Positions 19,476 to 63,365 of a DNA stretch of 64,000 nt are shown here, piece after piece. Made by a program: the position numbers and the translations under genes. Origin of the DNA: an uncultured Clostridia bacterium. GTDB taxonomy: Bacteria > Bacillota > Clostridia > Oscillospirales > Acutalibacteraceae. The DNA is taken from contig CANQBM010000008.1 in the NCBI GenBank assembly GCA_947589575.1, positions 918 to 64,917 on the forward strand. Direction: 5' to 3'. The notes under the pieces are model-generated. The model searched no databases and was not told where the DNA came from. It saw nothing but the letters and a program-made list of their open reading frames with translations. The stretch's first letter is position 1, and every line of letters starts with the position of its first letter.

Positions 19476-20181
19476 TTACCTCATTAATTAACTGAACCGA
19501 AGGATTTGTCATTTCACCCTCAATTTCTATCTTTTTTGTTTTCGCAAGTTCAAGCACGGCAAGAAAGGTTGCCACAATATCGCTTTTAGTCTGCGCATCC
19601 TTAAAAAGAGATAAAAATTTTATTTTTTTACCTCTGCCAAGCTTACGCATAACCGCGCTTACCTTAGTTGCGACCGAAACAAATTTCTTAGCAACTATGA
19701 CCTTAAAAGAGTCAAGCGGAGGCGGCAGCTTACGCCTGCCCCTGCCTGCCGCGCTTATGTATGCGTTAAGAAGCTCCTCCCCCTCGTGAAAACGCTCATA
19801 ATCATAATTTACATATCCCTGTTGGGCGGGACGGACAAAACGGTTAAAGCCATCTGTCTGTTCGGAGAGTTTTTTAGCCATAAGTTTGCAGTCACGGTAT
19901 TCTATAAGCTCGCCTGTCAGTTCTTTTTTCAGTATTTCAGCCTCTTCATGCTTTGGAAGCAGGGATACGGTTTTTATATAAATAAGCCTCGCTGCCATTT
20001 CAAGAAACTCGCCCGCAACGTCAAAATCCTGTTCCCGCATCTGTCTTACATAGTCAACATACTGATTTACAAGCTCAACAATAGGAATGTCGTTAATATT
20101 CAGTTTATGCTTTGAAATAAGATGTAAAAGAAGATCCATAGGTCCTTCATAAACATCTATCTTATAATTTATTTGTTCCAT
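19459..20181 (-). CDS. scpA: Segregation and condensation protein A (kleisin)
   Basis: YEGPMDLLLHLI, EFLEMAARLIYIK, IVATFLAVLEL. Confidence 0.95.
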   Translation of the reverse strand: MEQINYKIDVYEGPMDLLLHLISKHKLNINDIPIVELVNQYVDYVRQMREQDFDVAGEFLEMAARLIYIKTVSLLPKHEEAEILKKELTGELIEYRDCKLMAKKLSEQTDGFNRFVRPAQQGYVNYDYERFHEGEELLNAYISAAGRGRRKLPPPLDSFKVIVAKKFVSVATKVSAVMRKLGRGKKIKFLSLFKDAQTKSDIVATFLAVLELAKTKKIEIEGEMTNPSVQLINEVNDIEQ

Positions 20182-20861
20182 TATTCACCAAATACCGCTT
20201 TTGGAATTATCGAAATCAAGTCCATCATTCCGCCGGAAATAAATGAAATAACACCGTCAAGAATTCCTGTAAAAAGAATAATTATAAATCCTATCATGAT
20301 ATATCTTTCATAACGTTCTATTTTAAAATAAATTTTATCGGGAAGTATTGAAGAAAAAATTCTTGACCCGTCAAGAGGCGGAATAGGCAACAGGTTAAAT
20401 ACAGCAAGCGTTACATTTACCGACGCCGCAATATAAAAGAAATATGAAAGAGCTGAAAAAGCGGGATTTTCCGAGTTGAAGGAACCGAAAATATAAAATA
20501 AGAAAACAGCTATAAATCCCATAATGAGATTTGAAACAGGTCCCGCCAGGGCAATCAGCGCCATATCACGTCTCGGATGCTTAAGCCTTGCAGGATTAAC
20601 CGGTACAGGCTTTGCGTATCCTACCCCGAAAAGGAAAATCATTATTGTGCCAAGTATATCAAGATGGGCAAACGGATTAACGGTAAGTCTTCCCTTAATC
20701 CTTGCGGTATCGTCACCGCACTTGTCGGCAACAAGAGCGTGCGCAAGCTCGTGAATGGGCAGACAGCAGAAAACGACAAAGCAGGTTGATAAAACCATTA
20801 TCAAAAAGCTCAGGTAATCCCCTTCTCTGAAATAGTAAATCATATCGGATAATCTGCTCAT
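20181..20861 (-). CDS. Site-2 protease family (M50) membrane metalloprotease
   Basis: HELAH, GRLTVNP, FNLLPIPPLDG; start moved to ATG 20861 (RBS AAAGGA, avoids long overlap with prmC). Confidence 0.9.
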   Translation of the reverse strand: MSRLSDMIYYFREGDYLSFLIMVLSTCFVVFCCLPIHELAHALVADKCGDDTARIKGRLTVNPFAHLDILGTIMIFLFGVGYAKPVPVNPARLKHPRRDMALIALAGPVSNLIMGFIAVFLFYIFGSFNSENPAFSALSYFFYIAASVNVTLAVFNLLPIPPLDGSRIFSSILPDKIYFKIERYERYIMIGFIIILFTGILDGVISFISGGMMDLISIIPKAVFGE

Positions 20862-20865
20862 AAAA

Positions 20866-21687
20866 TCAATCCTTTTTACATGCGGTAACCATTCTGTCGT
20901 TACCATACATATCTTTTATTACATTTATATTTTTAAAATGCGTAAGAACATTAAAAATATCTTTTCCTTGGTCTTCGCCTATTTCAAGAAAGAGGTGACC
21001 GTTTTTATTTAACATATCAAACCAATTATCGTTGATAATACGGTAAAAGTCAAGTCCGTCTTTTCCACCGTCAAGCGCCGTCGCAGGCTCATAAAGAACC
21101 TCTGACTGAAGGGTCTTTATATCATCACTTTTAACATATGGCGGATTTGATACAATAACATCGCCTTTAGGCAAATCATTTGTATTTTTTATGTCAGCGC
21201 AGATTATTCTTGCGTTTGAAATACCATCGGAGTTTTTCAAAAGATAAAACAGCGCGTCCCCGCTCTTTTCAATCATATAAATGGTTGCATCGGGACATGC
21301 CTTTGCAATGCTGACACCGATACAGCCTGAGCCCGCACATAAATCGTACACTATACACTCACCAAGATTTTTAATATGCTTTACCGCGAGCGCGCAGAGT
21401 TCCTCAGTTTCAGGTCTTGGTATGAGAACACCCTTGCCTACATAAAATTCGCTTTCATAAAAATCCCACTTACCGATAACATACTGAATAGGCTCTCCGC
21501 TTTTTACACGCCAAAGCATATCGGCAAGGCGTTTCATAATTATATCATCCTGTTGGTGCATTTTAAACTGACTGTTTTTTATCCCCGCAAGACTGCATAC
21601 AATACAGAGCGACTTGAATTCAGCCTCATCAATACCGTTACAGGAAAGAAAATAAACGCTGTAATTATACGCTTCCTTTAACGTCAT
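20866..21687 (-). CDS. prmC: Release factor glutamine methyltransferase
   Basis: GEPIQY, LIPRPETEEL, DLCAGSGCIG, SNPPY, ALDGGKDGLDFY. Confidence 0.95.
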   Translation of the reverse strand: MTLKEAYNYSVYFLSCNGIDEAEFKSLCIVCSLAGIKNSQFKMHQQDDIIMKRLADMLWRVKSGEPIQYVIGKWDFYESEFYVGKGVLIPRPETEELCALAVKHIKNLGECIVYDLCAGSGCIGVSIAKACPDATIYMIEKSGDALFYLLKNSDGISNARIICADIKNTNDLPKGDVIVSNPPYVKSDDIKTLQSEVLYEPATALDGGKDGLDFYRIINDNWFDMLNKNGHLFLEIGEDQGKDIFNVLTHFKNINVIKDMYGNDRMVTACKKD

Positions 21688-57273: not shown

Positions 57274-57327
57274 AACTCTTTTTAGTGGAATTGTTCAATA
57301 AATTTTATAAAATGTTTAATAATTTTG

Positions 57328-57356
57328 TTGACATTTGTGTGGAATATTGGTATTAT
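57328..57356 (+). promoter_or_regulatory. Sigma-A promoter of sigH-like gene
   Basis: TTGACA (57328-57333)-17 nt-TATTAT (57351-57356). Confidence 0.75.
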
Positions 57357-57378
57357 AGTAGTAAGGTGGGAGAGAATT

Positions 57379-57951
57379 ATGTCTGAGTTTAATATAAAAA
57401 CTAATGACGAAATTCTTTCAAATGCGCAATCCGGCGACAATGTTCAAATGGAAATTGCGATTGAAAAATACAGACCTTTTGTTGAGCTTGCTGCCCTAAA
57501 GTATAAAGATTCCCCTCTTGAGTATGAGGACATTATACAGGAAGGCATGATAGGTCTTTTAGCTGCCATTAAATCATATGACAGTAAAAAAGGCGCCTCT
57601 TTTAAAACTTATGCAAAAATCTGTATTGACAATTCAATCCAGACAGCTCTCAGAAAATTCAACAGGCAAAAGGATATTCCTGCTCAAAATTTTATTGAAT
57701 ATCAGGAGGAAGAACTGCCTTTTCAAAACGGAGCTGCCAGCGCAGAGGACATTGTCATTGCTCAAGAAAGCGTTTCACTGTTGACTAAAGTTCTTCATGA
57801 AAATCTCTCAGATTTTGAAAACGAGGTCTTAAGACTGCACATCGTCGGTTGCAGCTACAATGAAATTGCCAAAAGATTATGCAAAACACCTAAAGCAATC
57901 GATAATGCTTTACAACGTGTAAGGAAGAAATTAACAGGTATTTCTTTGTAG
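57379..57951 (+). CDS. sigH: Sigma-H-like RNA polymerase sigma factor
   Basis: EDIIQEGMIGLLAAI, SFKTYAKICI, LSDFENEVL, SYNEIA, KAIDNALQRVRKKL; start moved to ATG 57379. Confidence 0.8.
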   Translation: MSEFNIKTNDEILSNAQSGDNVQMEIAIEKYRPFVELAALKYKDSPLEYEDIIQEGMIGLLAAIKSYDSKKGASFKTYAKICIDNSIQTALRKFNRQKDIPAQNFIEYQEEELPFQNGAASAEDIVIAQESVSLLTKVLHENLSDFENEVLRLHIVGCSYNEIAKRLCKTPKAIDNALQRVRKKLTGISL

Positions 57952-57990
57952 CACACAAATCCGACAATTAACTTTTGAGAGGTGAAAATT

Positions 57991-58269
57991 ATGTTCGAAG
58001 ACAAAACATTGATTTGTAAGGACTGCGGAAATGAATTTGTTTTCACAGCGGGCGAACAGGAATTCTATGCAGAGAAAGGCTTTGTAAACGAGCCCCAAAG
58101 ATGCAAAGAGTGCCGTGACAAAAGAAAAGCCGCACGCAGAGCGCCGCGTGAATATCACGACGCAGTATGCGCATCCTGCGGAAAAGAGTGTCAGGTTCCG
58201 TTTGCTCCAAACGGCGAACGTCCCGTTTACTGCAGCGAATGTTTTGCAAAAATGAAAGAAGAGGGATAA
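57991..58269 (+). CDS. Double zinc-ribbon protein (zf-trcl plus CxxC-x17-CxxC)
   Basis: DKTLICKDCG..FTAGEQEFY..KG..NEPQRCKEC; CASCG...PVYCSEC; RBS GAGGTG before ATG 57991. Confidence 0.85.
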   Translation: MFEDKTLICKDCGNEFVFTAGEQEFYAEKGFVNEPQRCKECRDKRKAARRAPREYHDAVCASCGKECQVPFAPNGERPVYCSECFAKMKEEG

Positions 58270-58368: not shown

Positions 58369-58457
58369 GCAGAGGTATCGAAGCGGTCATAACGAGGCGG
58401 TCTTGAAAACCGTTTGTCCGAAAGGGCGCGTGGGTTCGAATCCCACCCTCTGCGCCA
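58369..58457 (+). tRNA. tRNA-Ser(TGA)
   Basis: 89 nt with long variable arm; anticodon loop CT TGA AA; encoded CCA. Confidence 0.95.
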
Positions 58458-58490
58458 AAAAAAAGAAGTCGTTTTTACGACTTCTTTTTT
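58457..58490. terminator. Bidirectional terminator (tRNA-Ser / acyltransferase)
   Basis: AAAAAAAAGAAGTCGT-TTTT-ACGACTTCTTTTTT. Confidence 0.85.
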
Positions 58491-58497
58491 ATTTTTA

Positions 58498-59643
58498 TTA
58501 TTTAGAAAACAGCTTTTTATCGACCCATACAATCAAATCGTTGTAATGCAAAATCTTTTTTAAAAATTCAACAACTATTGATATTGCTACCGAAACAATT
58601 AAAAGTATAACCGGAATAAGAATTGCATTCTTAACCGAATAAAGCAAATCGTTAAGATACACATATCTGATAAAGGTATGAATCAAAAAGATATTTAATG
58701 AGTGGCTTCCGATAAACATAAGCGCTTTATTGACAATGGGAATCCTTTTTAAGTATCTGTTTGCAAAAAGAATAACAATCACGGGTGAAATGCAGTAGTT
58801 GAATTCCCAAATCTTTTCCCTGCCGAACTTATGTGTAATAACAACAATCAGGAAAAAGGCAAGCATATAAACAAAAAACAATATTATATCCGAAAGGATT
58901 TTGCTCTTTTTAAAAAGCGTAAATTTATTAACCCTTGAAAAAACGTCATACTTTGCAAAAGCCATACCAAGAATATATGCCAGGAAAAAAGAAAATATGT
59001 TTTTACTCCCCGGAAAACCCATACCCATAATTCTCGGAAAAAGCATAAAAGCAGCACCGATAACAAAGAAACTAAAGCGTTCACCGAGTCGGCATATAAG
59101 AGGGAAAAATACTGTCATTATAACGACCGCGCTCATATACCACCAAGTGCCTACAAGAGAGGGTGTTCCGACAATATGGGAAATTCCGAGAAAATCAATT
59201 ACCGCCCATAACCAGCTCCCCTCAATCTTTGTCTGCGATGTAACATAACAGATAAGCGGGCGTTGGTCTATCGCATACGTTATGATAAACACAAGAATAT
59301 ATACAAACCAGAAACCGCCTAGAACTTTAAGCAGTCTTTCACCCGTCCAGTTAAAAACAGACCTGTTGTCAAGTCTTATTTGACTGAATGATTTATAAAA
59401 CCCATATGCTGTAATAAATACAAACATACCCACGCACAACTTAAAAGAGTCGCAAACCATCAATGGCCAGTGGTATGATTCAAAAGGGAAAAAATTAAAT
59501 ACGTGCCTTTTAATCTCTGTTACTGAAATAGAATGGTGAAACATTAACAGCACAATCGCAACACCTTTTACAAGCATAGAATCATACTTTGAAAATGAGC
59601 TTGACCGAGCTGCTCTTTCAACATCTGCTTTTCTGATAATCAT
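58498..59643 (-). CDS. Acyltransferase-3 (OafA-like) integral membrane O-acyltransferase
   Basis: KGVAIVLLMFHH, VGMFVFITAYG, WWYMSA, IGSHSLNIFLIH; about 10 TM segments; own TTGACA-17-TATAAT promoter upstream. Confidence 0.85.
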   Translation of the reverse strand: MIIRKADVERAARSSSFSKYDSMLVKGVAIVLLMFHHSISVTEIKRHVFNFFPFESYHWPLMVCDSFKLCVGMFVFITAYGFYKSFSQIRLDNRSVFNWTGERLLKVLGGFWFVYILVFIITYAIDQRPLICYVTSQTKIEGSWLWAVIDFLGISHIVGTPSLVGTWWYMSAVVIMTVFFPLICRLGERFSFFVIGAAFMLFPRIMGMGFPGSKNIFSFFLAYILGMAFAKYDVFSRVNKFTLFKKSKILSDIILFFVYMLAFFLIVVITHKFGREKIWEFNYCISPVIVILFANRYLKRIPIVNKALMFIGSHSLNIFLIHTFIRYVYLNDLLYSVKNAILIPVILLIVSVAISIVVEFLKKILHYNDLIVWVDKKLFSK

Positions 59644-59760
59644 TTTGATTTCCTCAATTAAATTTTGATGATTTCATATTTTAATAATTGAGTTTATTAT
59701 ATTTTAAAATGGATAATATGTCAATATTTCGATTTTACGTAGTATTCTATAAACGAATGA

Positions 59761-61584
59761 TCAACCTGCATAATTGAGCTTTTCCCTATTACTTCCGTCA
59801 AATCTTAAGCGATAATTAGGACCTCCCTGAATATCGAGATTAAGTTTGCAATAAATCCATTCACCTGCAATGTTTATAGAAGCTACTTTTTCATCTGTCA
59901 GCTTTTTCTTGTTGCTTCCGTCAAGCTTTACGCTGTACATTCTGTTGCTATCGTCTGTATTTGAATAGTAAATCGTGTCACCTGCAACATTTAAATCAAA
60001 AGCAGAATCATCATTGACTTTGTGATTATCAGTTCCATCGGTTTTTACAGCATATATTTTGTCGTCATCATTTTTGTTCAAATAATAAATCCAGTTATCG
60101 AGAACATTAATATCATACGTTTCGCAATCAATAATCTTGTGACTGTTGCTCCCGTCTGTTTTCATGGCATATATCTTGTAACCGTCATTTTTATTGTTAT
60201 AATAAATCAAATCATCAACAACAGCTATAATATAATTATCAAAAATCTTTTGCTTATTACTTCCGTCAGTTTTCATAACAAACGATTTGTAGTTTTCATC
60301 ACAATACCATGTTGAATAATAAATATTTTCACCCACAACGCTCATAGAAATGGGTTCATCATCACTTATCTTATGATTATTAGCTCCATCTGTCATAACA
60401 GCGTATATACCACCATAACCATTATAATACACATAATTGTCAACAACGTTAATAAAAGGCATAAGCAGATTGCAATTTTTGCTCAGCTTTTTCCTTTCGG
60501 TTCCGTCAGTCTTTATGCGGTATAAATTATAAGTTTCTCCCAACGAATCGCAATAATAAATATAATCGCCCTGTAAAGCCGCATAACCACAATTGTCAAG
60601 ATTTCCTGATGTGTTTCCGGCAATATCTACCACTTTATTTTCCGGTTCTGTTTCAGTTGTACTTTCCGTAACAGTTGAGTTTACCATAGTTTCGGGCGCA
60701 AGATTATTTTGTTCAAGGTTTAATCGTGTGCCGGCAAACACACCGCCCGACACAAGAACTGCTGCGCTCAAAACTCCGGCAATCACCTTAGACGCCGTTG
60801 TTTTGAACAGCTTTTTTGAAAGTGAAATTTTGGCATTAGATAAAGCATTATCAGTAACACCGAAAGTCGTTTCAGCAGGGCTGTTATAACTGCGCGTAAT
60901 AGAGGCTGCACCGTTCACAATAGTTGAAAAAGACGGATGCAGCATAGTATTTGGAATATGCTTTGAAAGAATAGTGCCAAGAAGAGGAATTGCAGCCGCA
61001 GAATGAAGCTGAATATTGTCCCTTTTTTCAATTGCTTCTATTTCATCACGAATTTTCTTTCGTGCATAATTCAGACGGCTTTTAACCGTCCCTTCACTGC
61101 ATTCAAGAAAATCAGCAATCTCCGAAACCGATTTTTCATCATAATAATAGAGAATAATACATACCCTCTGCTCGTCAGGCAGGCGGTCAATAATTTCATT
61201 TATTATTTTATGTATTTCTGAATTATCAACTATCTCCTGCGCGTTTTCCGCTTTATTATCTTCAATATCAAATTCAAAACCATCCGCTTTATCATATTGA
61301 GAGAAAAGAACAGGCTTTGACTTTTTCAGATAATTTTTACATTTGTTAGCCGCAATGCTTTTAAGCCAGCTTTCAAAAACAAAAGCATTATTAAGTGTAT
61401 TCAAACTTTTAAATGCGGCTACAAATGTTTCCTGAGTAATATCACCTGCATCCTCTCTGTTTTTGAGAAGTTTAAAGCAGAGATAGTAAATTCTGCTGTA
61501 ATATTCCTCATATAAAACAGAAAAGGCTTGTGAGTCACCGCTTACAGCTTTCTGAATTAAATCGATTAGTTCTGTTTTTTCCAT
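59761..61584 (-). CDS. ECF-type sigma factor fused to a TM helix and a DUF5050-like beta-propeller
   Basis: Region 2 (DAGDITQETF, WLKSIAANKCKNYLKK); region 4 (LPDEQR..YYYDEKSVSEIA...GTVKSRLNYARKK); TM VIAGVLSAAVLVSGGVFA; seven IYY...Y..KTDG repeats; RBS AAGAGG supports start 61584. Confidence 0.85.
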   Translation of the reverse strand: MEKTELIDLIQKAVSGDSQAFSVLYEEYYSRIYYLCFKLLKNREDAGDITQETFVAAFKSLNTLNNAFVFESWLKSIAANKCKNYLKKSKPVLFSQYDKADGFEFDIEDNKAENAQEIVDNSEIHKIINEIIDRLPDEQRVCIILYYYDEKSVSEIADFLECSEGTVKSRLNYARKKIRDEIEAIEKRDNIQLHSAAAIPLLGTILSKHIPNTMLHPSFSTIVNGAASITRSYNSPAETTFGVTDNALSNAKISLSKKLFKTTASKVIAGVLSAAVLVSGGVFAGTRLNLEQNNLAPETMVNSTVTESTTETEPENKVVDIAGNTSGNLDNCGYAALQGDYIYYCDSLGETYNLYRIKTDGTERKKLSKNCNLLMPFINVVDNYVYYNGYGGIYAVMTDGANNHKISDDEPISMSVVGENIYYSTWYCDENYKSFVMKTDGSNKQKIFDNYIIAVVDDLIYYNNKNDGYKIYAMKTDGSNSHKIIDCETYDINVLDNWIYYLNKNDDDKIYAVKTDGTDNHKVNDDSAFDLNVAGDTIYYSNTDDSNRMYSVKLDGSNKKKLTDEKVASINIAGEWIYCKLNLDIQGGPNYRLRFDGSNREKLNYAG

Positions 61585-61705
61585 ACTTGTCCTCTTATAC
61601 AGTATCTTATTATAATTATAACACAAATAACATTACTTGCAATAAATATAAAATTAAGACATTTTAATTTTGTTATTTAGTATAATTTTATACATCTATT
61701 ATTAT

Positions 61706-62482
61706 TTAATCTAGTAAAATAACAGCTTGTACTTCGTCTCCGTCATGCAAATATGTATAGATAGAAGCGGGTTCACCATTGACAAAAAGTTCTGCAAGCT
61801 CATATCTATAATTTAGAAAACTTGATGAACCATATGAAATTGCATCAAATAGGCAAATAGTTTTAGTATATTGTCCAACAGTTTGATTCTTCTGTTTTGC
61901 TAAAAATTGAGAGGCAGCAAAACTACTTAATCCATATACTGTTGCGGTTGTATTTTTCCATGGCACATCTGTTAAATCTATAAAGTTAAGCCCGCTGATG
62001 TCAGTAATCTTATCCGGATACAGCTCGCCTAACTTTTTTATATCATAATACAATCCCCTATCTATTTGGCAAACGCTGAAATGTGCTATGCCTGTTGTAT
62101 CACCCTGCGCCGCAGTGGTACTGCTGACACTGGATGTATTTTCCGAATTTGCAGAACTCCTGTCGCCTGATGAATCTAATTCAAATATCGCTAATAAAAC
62201 AATGCCAATTAATGCTAAAATAACTACAATGAATATTCCCATTGTACCTTTTTTAGATAATTTTCCAGGCGTTTTTTGAAATTCTATTGATTCATCGGAG
62301 CTTTCTGTTATATTAGTATCAGATTCTGCCATTTTACTGTCATTGCCGCCGGTTTCATTATTTACCAAAAAATTTTCAGACTGATTTTCCGCATCATCCG
62401 ATAAAGTTACATTCGTACCGCAGTCCGGGCAAAAAACAGTATCGTCCTCTAATTTGTTACCACATACTTCACAAAATTTCAT
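61706..62482 (-). CDS. Zinc-ribbon, single-TM membrane protein
   Basis: MKFCEVCG...FCPDCG ribbon, acidic linker, TM GIFIVVILALIGIVLLAIF, Ser/Thr linker, unknown C-terminal domain; start likely ATG 62482. Confidence 0.75.
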   Translation of the reverse strand: MKFCEVCGNKLEDDTVFCPDCGTNVTLSDDAENQSENFLVNNETGGNDSKMAESDTNITESSDESIEFQKTPGKLSKKGTMGIFIVVILALIGIVLLAIFELDSSGDRSSANSENTSSVSSTTAAQGDTTGIAHFSVCQIDRGLYYDIKKLGELYPDKITDISGLNFIDLTDVPWKNTTATVYGLSSFAASQFLAKQKNQTVGQYTKTICLFDAISYGSSSFLNYRYELAELFVNGEPASIYTYLHDGDEVQAVILLD

Positions 62483-62513
62483 ATTTCTATTGCCTTTCCG
62501 TAAATTGCTCAAC

Positions 62514-63005
62514 TCACTTTTTCATAAACAATTTTACTATAGGGTATATGATTACATAAGCTATAATTGCAAAAATAGGTATGAAAATATATGTAATAAA
62601 ATGCATTCTCCAATCCTGCAAATGAAATATTCCCATAATTATTTCATCAATACCACTTAAAAACGCCGCCCAAAAGCCTATAATACACGATATAAATCCG
62701 GCAATACCTTTGGGCAGCCACTTATTTTCTTCCTCTCGTTGCTTGTTTGCAGCTTCAGTAATTTCCCTGCAGTACGCCTCGTGTGACGGCAGAACCTCCC
62801 ACTGATCCAACGGAATCTCTCTGAAAAATGCCACAACCTTTGTCTGATTATTGATAAATTCAAGGCGCTCCTTTTCATAATTATACCGATAAAAACCGTT
62901 AGACTGCGTGTATATCGGTATTGACACCTTTGATGTGCCTCCGGTTGTAAATTTGTTTGTTTCATTTTCGTTCTGATTTAATTCATTTAATTCTGATTTT
63001 TCCAT
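62514..63005 (-). CDS. Hypothetical protein with two C-terminal TM helices
   Basis: RBS GAAAGGG before ATG; two hydrophobic segments at the C-terminus. Confidence 0.7.
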   Translation of the reverse strand: MEKSELNELNQNENETNKFTTGGTSKVSIPIYTQSNGFYRYNYEKERLEFINNQTKVVAFFREIPLDQWEVLPSHEAYCREITEAANKQREEENKWLPKGIAGFISCIIGFWAAFLSGIDEIIMGIFHLQDWRMHFITYIFIPIFAIIAYVIIYPIVKLFMKK

Positions 63006-63090
63006 AATTTTATCCCTTTCTAAATCATTTGATACTATTAAGACAACTGAATATGTAATTCGGTTTTACCAATTTACAAATTTTTATTTT

Positions 63091-63229
63091 TGCGGGCTTT
63101 CTGCTCTGCTTTTCTGTTCTGCAAACAAGTGTTATCGCGCCGGCTGCCGTCTGCTTGCACGCGAATAACGAAACAGTCCGGCGGACTGTTTCTCGCCCTC
63201 GGCGCGAGAGTTCGAGTCTCTCCTTCTGC
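63091..63229. repeat. GC-rich multi-hairpin element ending in an inverted copy of the tRNA-Ser(GCT) 3' end
   Basis: GAAACAGTCC-GGC-GGACTGTTTC hairpin (63170-63192); GTTATCGCG/CGCGAATAAC stem; 63200-63229 is the exact reverse complement of 63279-63308. Confidence 0.8.
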
Positions 63230-63242
63230 AATTTAATAACAT

Positions 63243-63275
63243 AAAAAAAGGAACAGATAAATCTGTTCCTTTTTT
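63243..63275 (-). terminator. Terminator of tRNA-Ser(GCT)
   Basis: AAAAAAAGGAACAGAT-AA-ATCTGTTCCTTTTTT. Confidence 0.88.
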
Positions 63276-63365
63276 GGCGCAGAAGGAGAGACTCGAACTC
63301 TCGCGCCGGTTGCCCGACCTACGCCCTTAGCAGGGGCGCCTCGTCACCAACTTGAGTACTTCTGC
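63275..63365 (-). tRNA. tRNA-Ser(GCT)
   Basis: 91 nt; CGCCC-CT GCT AA-GGGCG; long variable arm; encoded CCA. Confidence 0.95.

Follow-up and report, generated by a model that had tools for sequence, protein, structure and literature searches.

The window analysed here is a stretch of 64,000 nucleotides from an uncultured Clostridia bacterium of the family Acutalibacteraceae (contig CANQBM010000008.1 of assembly GCA_947589575.1). Near one of its ends lies a gene, in the following called gene C (protein P0001), in which an extracytoplasmic function (ECF) sigma factor is fused through a linker, a transmembrane (TM) helix and a stalk to an outer beta-propeller. Directly upstream on the same strand two further genes are found, A and B, which code for membrane proteins and are preceded by a predicted ECF-type promoter. 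We characterized this locus by domain searches, structure modelling and comparison with its relatives in other genomes. Proteins and loci from these comparisons are denoted by P and L numbers, respectively, and the features of the window are collected in Table 1.

Table 1. Features of the A-B-C locus in the window. The last column compares parts of gene C with the orthologue at locus L005 as the ratio of non-synonymous to synonymous substitution rates (dN/dS), which rests on small counts.
Feature	Position	Strand	Residues of gene C	Description	dN/dS versus L005
ECF-type promoter (predicted)	63041..63068	(-)		TAAAACC-N14-GTTGTCT (AAC-N17-TGTC), 35 nt upstream of gene A	
Gene A	62514..63005	(-)		163 aa; cytoplasmic beta-meander plus helix (residues 26-83 of gene A) on a two-helix TM hairpin	
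Gene B	61706..62512	(-)		cytoplasmic Zn_Ribbon_1, TM helix, ectodomain of ~150 aa; probable true start ATG 62482	
Housekeeping-type promoter (predicted)	61615..61642	(-)		TTGCAA-16-TGnTATAAT, before gene C; basal expression	
Gene C (P0001)	59761..61584	(-)	1-607	ECF sigma - linker - TM - stalk - DUF5050 propeller fusion, 607 aa	
Sigma region 2	61318..61515	(-)	24-89	Pfam PF04542, Sigma70_r2	0.18 (whole sigma part)
Sigma region 4	61048..61206	(-)	127-179	Pfam PF08281 and PF04545	
Post-sigma4 motif	60964..61029	(-)	186-207	E-K-x3-4-K-L-H-x5-P-L-L and hydrophobic 12-mer	
Cytoplasmic leash	60799..60963	(-)	208-262	disordered, Ser/Thr/Asn/Ala-rich; ends KKLFK	0.47
TM helix	60727..60789	(-)	266-286	pattern K-x2-A-G-x2-A...G-G	identical
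Extracellular stalk	60595..60726	(-)	287-330	Ser/Thr/Glu-rich; model confidence (pLDDT) 30-40	
DUF5050 propeller	59764..60594	(-)	331-607	YWTD-like, seven-bladed	0.69 (33 non-synonymous, 11 synonymous)
Acyltransferase_3 membrane protein	58498..59643	(-)		downstream of gene C, same strand	

The start codon of gene C is preceded at a distance of 6 nt by the sequence AGAGGA, and the MEKTE- start is common to its homologues. Both sigma regions are intact, as a first-pass annotation of this DNA had claimed. Region 2 (PF04542) is matched with 54.4 bits (cut-off 24, E 1e-14) and region 4 (Sigma70_r4_2, PF08281, residues 127-178) with 53.2 bits (cut-off 25.7, E 2e-14). Over the N-terminal 185 residues the NCBIfam model TIGR02937 (sigma70-ECF) reaches 107.7 bits (cut-off 42.9), while no equivalog model was reached in the NCBIfam scan. 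Neither Pfam nor NCBIfam gave a match to sigma3 or sigma1.1. Judged by these matches, gene C is an ECF (group 4) sigma-70 factor that comprises sigma2 and sigma4 only. In an AlphaFold2 model based on an alignment of 84 sequences both regions were obtained at a predicted local distance difference test (pLDDT) score above 90.

Behind the sigma part a single segment passes a Kyte-Doolittle score of 1.6 (residues 267-285, score 2.1). It is flanked by four Lys/Arg and no acidic residues on its N-terminal side and by three acidic and no basic residues on its C-terminal side. This charge distribution is indicative of an N-in/C-out orientation, with the sigma domain in the cytoplasm and the C-terminal half outside. 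The basic patch followed by a true TM helix and the union of sensor and sigma factor in a single polypeptide, with cytoplasmic sigma domain and extracellular propeller, are thus in agreement with the first-pass annotation. The same holds for its seven-repeat, DUF5050-like propeller: seven repeats of the K/xTDG type are present, and DUF5050 (PF16472) matches residues 324-580 with 174.6 bits (cut-off 27, E 3e-51). Residues 335-603 were modelled at a pLDDT mostly above 90, and the best match in the PDB is 3S25 from Eubacterium rectale (TM-score 0.81 on the target, root-mean-square deviation 3.0), which is described as a "7-bladed beta-propeller-like protein". The next matches are the eukaryotic YWTD propellers of LRP6/LDLR. 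While 3S25 (EUBREC_1955) is the DUF5050 founder and has the same fold, it is a stand-alone protein without assigned function, whereas the propeller studied here is the outer domain of a sigma factor. In the literature we found DUF5050 mentioned but no functional account of it.

A fusion of this kind could be spurious, resulting from read-through, from a frameshift or from faulty assembly, or the gene could be in decay and its sigma domain no longer functional. We consider this extremely improbable and in effect refuted; no point in its favour was found. A metagenome-assembled genome (MAG) of a rabbit-gut Clostridia bacterium (L005) carries the same uninterrupted open reading frame of 607 codons at 92% amino-acid identity, with the same neighbours including two tRNA-Ser genes. 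This independent orthologue settles the concern, already voiced in the first-pass annotation, that the fusion is due to read-through or assembly. The 79 substitutions between both genes (25 synonymous, 54 non-synonymous) do not disrupt the frame, and the sigma part holds 3 of the 54 non-synonymous changes. Moreover, the protein cluster of gene C has 12 member sequences, other samples as well as an isolate genome, that of Desulfosporosinus metallidurans, contain full-length sigma+DUF5050 homologues, and every sigma residue that is invariant in the family is present in gene C. The distribution of changes along the gene (Table 1; the stalk has 78% identity to L005) is, within the small counts, what one expects if a sigma factor under constraint is attached to an outer domain that changes fast. 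It suggests, with the same reservation, relaxed or diversifying selection on the exposed propeller.

The architecture is not confined to this lineage. A word-indexed search returned 916 relatives of gene C, many of which share the N-terminal half but have other C-terminal domains attached. The full sigma+DUF5050 architecture was found in four clusters beside that of the query, one of them from the D. metallidurans isolate. P0005 and P0027 are cut at the N-terminus and retain sigma region 4 and the propeller. Among the sigma-bearing relatives 62 were aligned, and all of them have a TM helix at the same aligned place, such that the earlier expectation of recurrent sigma-TM fusions in gut Clostridia proved correct. 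Across these relatives T166, K168, S169, R170, L171 and R175 of sigma region 4 are invariant. The outer part, on the other hand, ranges from 100 to 727 residues and is of different kinds: BspA-type LRR_5 in eight relatives, DUF5050 in five, RCC1 in two and unrecognised in the rest. In a maximum-likelihood tree of the sigma part P0001 falls into a clade of eight (support 100/99), in which the DUF5050 members P0001, P0003 and P0004 interleave with members that carry other ectodomains. The well-supported branches require at least three changes of the DUF5050 label, which argues for an exchange of the outer domain on a conserved sigma-leash-TM scaffold.

DUF5050 was also found behind Ser/Thr kinases and zinc-ribbon membrane proteins (the listed set includes P0047, P0048, P0050, P0053, P0070, P0084, P0089, P0104 and P0120), and in the sigma fusion P0027 the propeller lies beside a PASTA domain. 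The occurrence of DUF5050 suggests a general extracellular sensor domain; that its sensing is related to the cell wall is perhaps the case, by a weak argument. At L022 (25-2870) the two genes upstream of P0004, a sigma+DUF5050 protein, encode DUF5050 lipoproteins. Their N-terminal signal peptide (MKETFFKKVFKTAASKIIAGVL...GGC) is almost identical to the internal juxtamembrane/TM segment of the sigma fusions (KKLFKTTASKVIAGVL). Anchor and propeller together have the appearance of a portable unit, which may have gained a sigma factor by grafting or may have lost one. A phage or plasmid origin of gene C was considered and dropped, since in the phage and plasmid collections no full-length relative was found and the matches were of the sigma-only or the propeller-only kind. 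Sigma factors aligning with gene C were seen in the crAss-like phages MT774376/NC_055869 (cr55_1) and MT774380 (cr1_1) and on a 6-kb faecal "Bacteriophage sp." contig, MT837799. These alignments cover residues 9-209 or 1-297 of gene C and thus extend past the post-sigma4 motif, in the case of MT837799 through the TM region.

Between sigma region 4 and the membrane the family has a characteristic segment. It starts with the post-sigma4 motif, in which E186 and L193 are invariant and P200 is conserved to at least 90% among the 62 relatives. The hydrophobic 12-mer that follows has a median Kyte-Doolittle score of 1.85 across the family. If any element inhibits the sigma factor or dips into the membrane, this putative helix is the most promising candidate. 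The leash behind it comprises ~55 residues in gene C, and its length, taken from L193 to the TM helix, varies from 53 to 104 residues in the relatives. Residues 209-323 were modelled at a pLDDT below 50. Pfam gave no match of any kind between residues 186 and 323 at E values up to 0.1, the leash gave no Pfam match in any of the relatives, and no member contains an anti-sigma domain. Likewise, Pfam detected neither a FecR-type domain between sigma4 and the TM helix nor a zf-HC2/ZAS-like domain in gene C or the 62 relatives. Gene C is free of cysteine from residue 163 up to the TM helix, and its leash lacks a Cys/His zinc motif. The TM helix is conserved in specific small residues: K266 and A269 (94% each), G270 (85%), A273 and G280 (81% each), with residues 279-280 forming the G-G pair. 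Its segment has a median content of 43% Gly+Ala+Ser across the family. A TM helix rich in Gly, Ala and Ser is usual for substrates of site-2 proteases.

For the upstream genes the domain databases provided little. In A and B together Pfam and NCBIfam recognised nothing beyond the zinc ribbon of B (PF13240, 26.9 bits, cut-off 25). AlphaFold2 modelled gene A at a pLDDT of 97 over residues 30-90, with three strands in a meander followed by two helices, a short one and a long one that continues into the TM hairpin. A Foldseek search of this model against the PDB gave no match better than E 0.3. The positive-inside rule and the zinc-ribbon fusions described below place the domain in the cytoplasm. 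It is a meander with a helix and not the helical bundle of 80-90 residues found in class I anti-sigma factors. With 27 representatives among 1.84 billion proteins and absence from 80 other genera of the host's family, gene A is, by these searches, a new and very small protein family.

Gene order connects A and B to gene C. The order A-B-sigma fusion recurs at L029/L030 (P0006), L033/L034 (P0007), L031 (P0010) and L043, each time in unrelated genomic surroundings and beside the closest sigma relatives. The A proteins share 43-60% identity among the window, L029, L033 and L031. The B proteins, which lie directly upstream of the gene C homologue, share 38-43% among the window, L029 and L033. At L031 gene B carries an RCC1 ectodomain, with a variant contig (L032) being devoid of B; at L043 gene A begins with a zinc ribbon and a Zn-ribbon-TM gene takes the position of gene B. 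A zinc-ribbon membrane protein also precedes the sigma+DUF5050 gene of D. metallidurans (L023) and P0012 (L035), and several such proteins lie behind P0072 (L037), itself a fusion of zinc ribbon and sigma factor. Fusions of this type are also present in P0060, P0094 and P0121, and in 5 of the 27 representatives of gene A (P0132, P0134, P0138, P0142 and P0145) a zinc ribbon is attached N-terminally to the A domain. The co-occurrence of sigma factor, zinc ribbon and A domain, together with these two fusion pairings, argues for a functional link, the nature of which it does not specify. As judged from its conserved neighbours, gene C is the third gene of a conserved, rare A-B-C operon and not a stand-alone one-component system. 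Of the earlier description as "one-component" there remains that sensor and sigma factor are in one chain, while this chain is encoded third in an operon with two membrane proteins facing the cytoplasm. Similarly, the earlier statement that no separate anti-sigma gene is adjacent holds in that no recognisable anti-sigma domain lies next to gene C, but two conserved partner genes do.

The predicted promoter of this operon is also common to the loci. Upstream of gene A all loci share the sequence TAAAACC-R-A-N9-TC-R-GTTGTCT-W-W-ATA-R-TA. Its exact core, AAAACC-N14-GTTGTCT, precedes A in the window/L005, L029/30, L033/34 and L031/32, and lies at L043 upstream of a divergent XRE gene. At L024, where A and B are missing, the core motif immediately precedes the sigma gene of P0003. 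At L037, likewise without A and B, variants with CGTCT stand directly upstream of the sigma gene of P0072 and before two of its zinc-ribbon neighbours, and such a variant also precedes the lipoprotein gene that follows P0012 (L035). Overall, an ECF-type motif precedes the cassette in five independent loci, and the operon or sigma gene in at least six, where by our own estimate ~0.01 exact core matches are expected by chance in all loci examined. The spacing AAC-N17-(T/C)GTC is that of the classical ECF promoters as described by the SigW, SigM, SigX and SigV consensus. With a position weight matrix built from ten sites and scanned over the 1.96-Mb genome, the operon site scored 47.8 bits and the next best site 14.6 bits. 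In search of further regulon members, the exact-pattern and matrix scans of the genome returned only the promoter of the operon itself, with other pattern matches at control level. From the single strong match we propose that the regulon is the operon itself; the first-pass statement that no regulon is known can thus be replaced by a concrete proposal. The operon is probably self-activating through the predicted ECF promoter.

A second, housekeeping-type promoter before gene C (Table 1) has a similar counterpart at L029 (TCGCAA-16-TATAAT). The view that the sigma gene has a housekeeping promoter only and is not autoregulated was dropped once the upstream genes were recognised as its operon. 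Downstream, the acyltransferase gene has a promoter of its own with a perfect TTGACA-17-TATAAT (59696-59724). No terminator was found between gene C and this gene, and read-through is possible in this genome. As a conserved target of the cassette the acyltransferase was rejected, since the cassettes at L029, L033, L031 and L043 do not contain it.

The operon structure suggests one way in which the sigma factor may be held inactive: gene A, perhaps together with B's zinc ribbon, could be the true anti-sigma factor and keep the sigma domain of C sequestered. The fusion would then serve to co-localise sigma factor, inhibitor and sensor, and control would lie in signal-dependent release from A/B rather than in cleavage of C. 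In agreement with this, a sigma-TM fusion lies downstream of A in 5 of 5 independent loci that reach far enough, namely two genes away in four loci and one gene away in the L032 variant without B (L044, the same locus as L043, and L045 are left out of this count because their contigs end too early). Like anti-sigma factors, A carries a confidently folded cytoplasmic domain on a membrane anchor, and zinc ribbons are fused to both sigma factor and A domain in relatives. Furthermore, A, B and C all stand under the sigma factor's own predicted promoter as in classical sigma/anti-sigma operons. However, neither an anti-sigma domain nor a PDB fold is matched by the beta-rich A domain, A is missing from the greater part of the wider sigma-TM family, and the close relatives P0003 and P0004 have no adjacent A or B. 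Inhibition by A/B is therefore not general, and the scaffold must be controllable without the two proteins. We regard A as the anti-sigma factor as unlikely.

Fused sigma factors with membrane segments have been described in other phyla. The sigma/anti-sigma hybrid IutY (ECF243) belongs to the iron-starvation cell-surface signalling of Pseudomonas putida (PMC8999054). It is activated by proteolysis through Prc and then RseP, and a truncated form is constitutively active (PMC8999054; PMC5411451). As in gene C, the ECF sigma factor of IutY is fused C-terminally to a single-pass membrane segment with an extracytoplasmic part. However, IutY has a FecR-type anti-sigma domain between sigma factor and membrane, where gene C has a disordered spacer without anti-sigma domain, and it signals with a TonB-dependent outer-membrane receptor in place of a DUF5050 propeller sensor. 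The host of gene C is a Gram-positive-type relative of Clostridium, and unlike IutY gene C is accompanied by two different partner genes. The actinobacterial groups ECF48, ECF52 and ECF53 (e.g. SCO4117 of Streptomyces coelicolor) are extended at the C-terminus by a long segment that comprises one or two TM helices and a sensing domain outside the cell (PMC8999054; PMC5826349), and proteolytic activation is predicted for them (PMC8999054). The earlier claim that no mechanism is established for this architecture was thus too strong, given the release of IutY by Prc and RseP and the prediction for ECF48/52/53 (PMC8999054). These actinobacterial proteins resemble gene C in the sensor extension past the TM helix and have no separate anti-sigma gene. 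They differ from it by a ZAS-like zinc-finger domain, where the leash of gene C has no zinc motif, and by a Pro-rich or carbohydrate-binding ectodomain. Gene C has its own post-sigma4 motif and belongs to a Clostridia family, and zinc binding is found in the separate partner B, as a zinc ribbon of another fold class.

For the split systems RsiW-SigW, RsiV-SigV and RseA-SigE a type II TM protein with helix-destabilising residues and an exposed juxtamembrane region, cleavage by RseP/RasP and an autoregulated AAC...CGTC promoter are established. The gene C locus shares with them the type II TM helix with its helix-destabilising residues, the exposed juxtamembrane region, an RseP/RasP orthologue in the genome and a predicted promoter of the AAC...GTC type. 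In these systems it is the inhibitor that is destroyed, whereas in the single chain of gene C cleavage must free the sigma factor itself. Having neither a FecR-type nor a ZAS-type domain, the family of gene C lacks the defining features of IutY and of ECF48/52/53. The main text of the ECF reclassification (ECF classification 2.0) lists no Firmicutes group with a single-TM sensor extension. In summary, the concept of a fused sigma/anti-sigma protein is already known, while a Clostridia family without FecR or ZAS domain and with partners of its own is, by domain content, new.

The reading that we favour, and to which we give about an even chance, is that of a membrane-tethered sigma factor freed by regulated proteolysis and encoded by the last gene of a self-activating A-B-C operon. 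Newly made, tethered sigma factor would be inactive; what holds it may be the post-sigma4 helix, the cytoplasmic domains of A and B, or helix and domains together. Once the propeller senses a cue, which is possibly related to the cell wall, the stalk would become exposed to a site-1 cut, upon which the Gly/Ala/Ser-rich TM helix would be cut by the RseP/RasP of the genome. The freed sigma domain would then transcribe its own operon with RNA polymerase from TAAAACC-N14-GTTGTCT, such that A, B and C would rise, plus the downstream acyltransferase by read-through. This positive feedback would limit itself, because each new sigma molecule is again tethered. We infer this mechanism, while anatomy, conservation and co-occurrence are observed.

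Proteolysis is favoured due to the type II topology, the disordered stalk, the Gly/Ala/Ser-rich TM helix, a bona fide RseP and the precedents of IutY and ECF52. Features of substrates of regulated intramembrane proteolysis that are found in gene C are the type II single-pass TM segment, the helix-destabilising residues therein and a site-2 protease in the genome. The latter is an RseP/RasP equivalog of 346 residues with an HEGGH motif, encoded between dxr and ispG on contig C3, which matches TIGR00054 with 237 bits (cut-off 147.55). The M50 protease at 20181-20906, proposed in the first-pass annotation as the releasing protease, reaches only 31 bits with the RseP model, and the canonical RseP on contig C3 is the likelier candidate. 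Several points weigh against release by proteolysis from a self-activating operon. The leash, which is always long and disordered (53-104 residues), suits a sigma factor that is active while tethered equally well, and the conservation of A-G-x2-A and G-G could reflect the packing of helices and not a protease. The post-sigma4 helix (198-207) was modelled at a pLDDT of only ~56. A and B are unlike any known anti-sigma domain and may be outputs instead of regulators. The assignment of the promoter, finally, is a candidate one that rests on co-occurrence and on likeness to ECF consensus promoters.

In a different reading the sigma factor is active without proteolysis and recruits RNA polymerase to membrane-proximal DNA on its flexible leash. 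Gating would occur in one of two ways: the TM helix pairs through A-G-x2-A with A, with B or with another copy of C, or the hydrophobic helix switches from membrane to sigma domain and back. Membrane-bound one-component regulators such as ToxR, CadC and BcrR resemble this scheme. It would account for a leash that is long and disordered in 62 of 62 relatives, for a conservation of small TM residues that is sequence-specific, for two co-transcribed membrane partners with cytoplasmic domains and for a single local target promoter adjoining the gene itself. On the other hand, no membrane-bound sigma factor is known to act in this way, and regulated intramembrane proteolysis fits with the Gly-rich TM helix and the exposed stalk. 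The characterised fused sigma/anti-sigma proteins are freed by proteolysis (PMC8999054). Overall we judge activity in the tethered state to be rather unlikely, and regulated proteolysis remains the favoured reading.

A broader proposal that we put forward with some doubt, as a tentative possibility, is a new kind of sigma control without any anti-sigma domain. Two small unrelated modules, B's zinc ribbon and the new beta-meander domain of A on its TM hairpin, would form a complex with the tethered sigma factor in the cytoplasm and so control it, and the sigma factor would act either tethered or released. The swappable outer domains of B and C would be paired sensors, and with itself as sole target the operon would be a self-contained switch for surface display or sensing.

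The surroundings of the cassette provide some insight into its history. In the same-genus genome G026 (L047, G026:C29, 9090-9490) tRNA-Ser(tga) and tRNA-Ser(gct) lie in tandem, separated by an empty stretch of ~220 bp. In the window (58369-63365) the two tRNA-Ser genes are convergent and 4.8 kb apart. The tandem pair in G026 indicates that the 4.8-kb stretch acyltransferase-C-B-A is lineage-specific; by this comparison it was inserted, and along with this one of the tRNA genes was inverted. Upstream of the ECF promoter ~400 bp are missing in the window compared to L005 (window 63069-63274; L005 4170-4520). The lost stretch contains a divergent gene for a 68-aa XRE-type helix-turn-helix protein (L005 4174-4380, minus strand) and a TTGACT-17-TATAAT promoter, an arrangement that is also found at L029 and L043. 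The cassette of the window has thus lost a probable repressor gene and a housekeeping promoter.

Two further sigma genes were noted in the genome. At 57325-58269 of the window a second sigma-like gene (regions 2 and 4, ~190-208 aa) adjoins a gene for a 95-aa double treble-clef zinc finger (PF13451 and PF23477). The pair lies between ychF and tRNA-Ser and is conserved at L005 (9308-10198) and L047 (9640-10560). On contig C16 of the same genome (L002, 473-2412) an ordinary ECF sigma gene is followed by a gene for a 342-aa single-pass membrane protein. The latter two look like a classical sigma/anti-sigma pair, such that fused and split designs appear to coexist in this genome.

To our knowledge, the control of ECF sigma factors has been worked out almost entirely on separate anti-sigma proteins of Proteobacteria, Bacilli and Actinobacteria. 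The locus described here belongs to a large, unstudied family of gut and rumen Clostridia in which sigma factor and membrane anchor are directly connected, the outer domains are interchangeable and no anti-sigma domain can be recognised. It lends itself to experiments: the defined predicted promoter with its one strong match in the genome is a ready reporter, A and B are conserved candidate partners, and the relatives with other ectodomains form a natural comparison set. If the mechanism differs from regulated proteolysis, it would constitute a new mode of sigma-factor control. DUF5050 propellers would gain a first functional context, as sensor domains, and a compact unit that leads from sensor to promoter could serve as an orthogonal switch for anaerobes.

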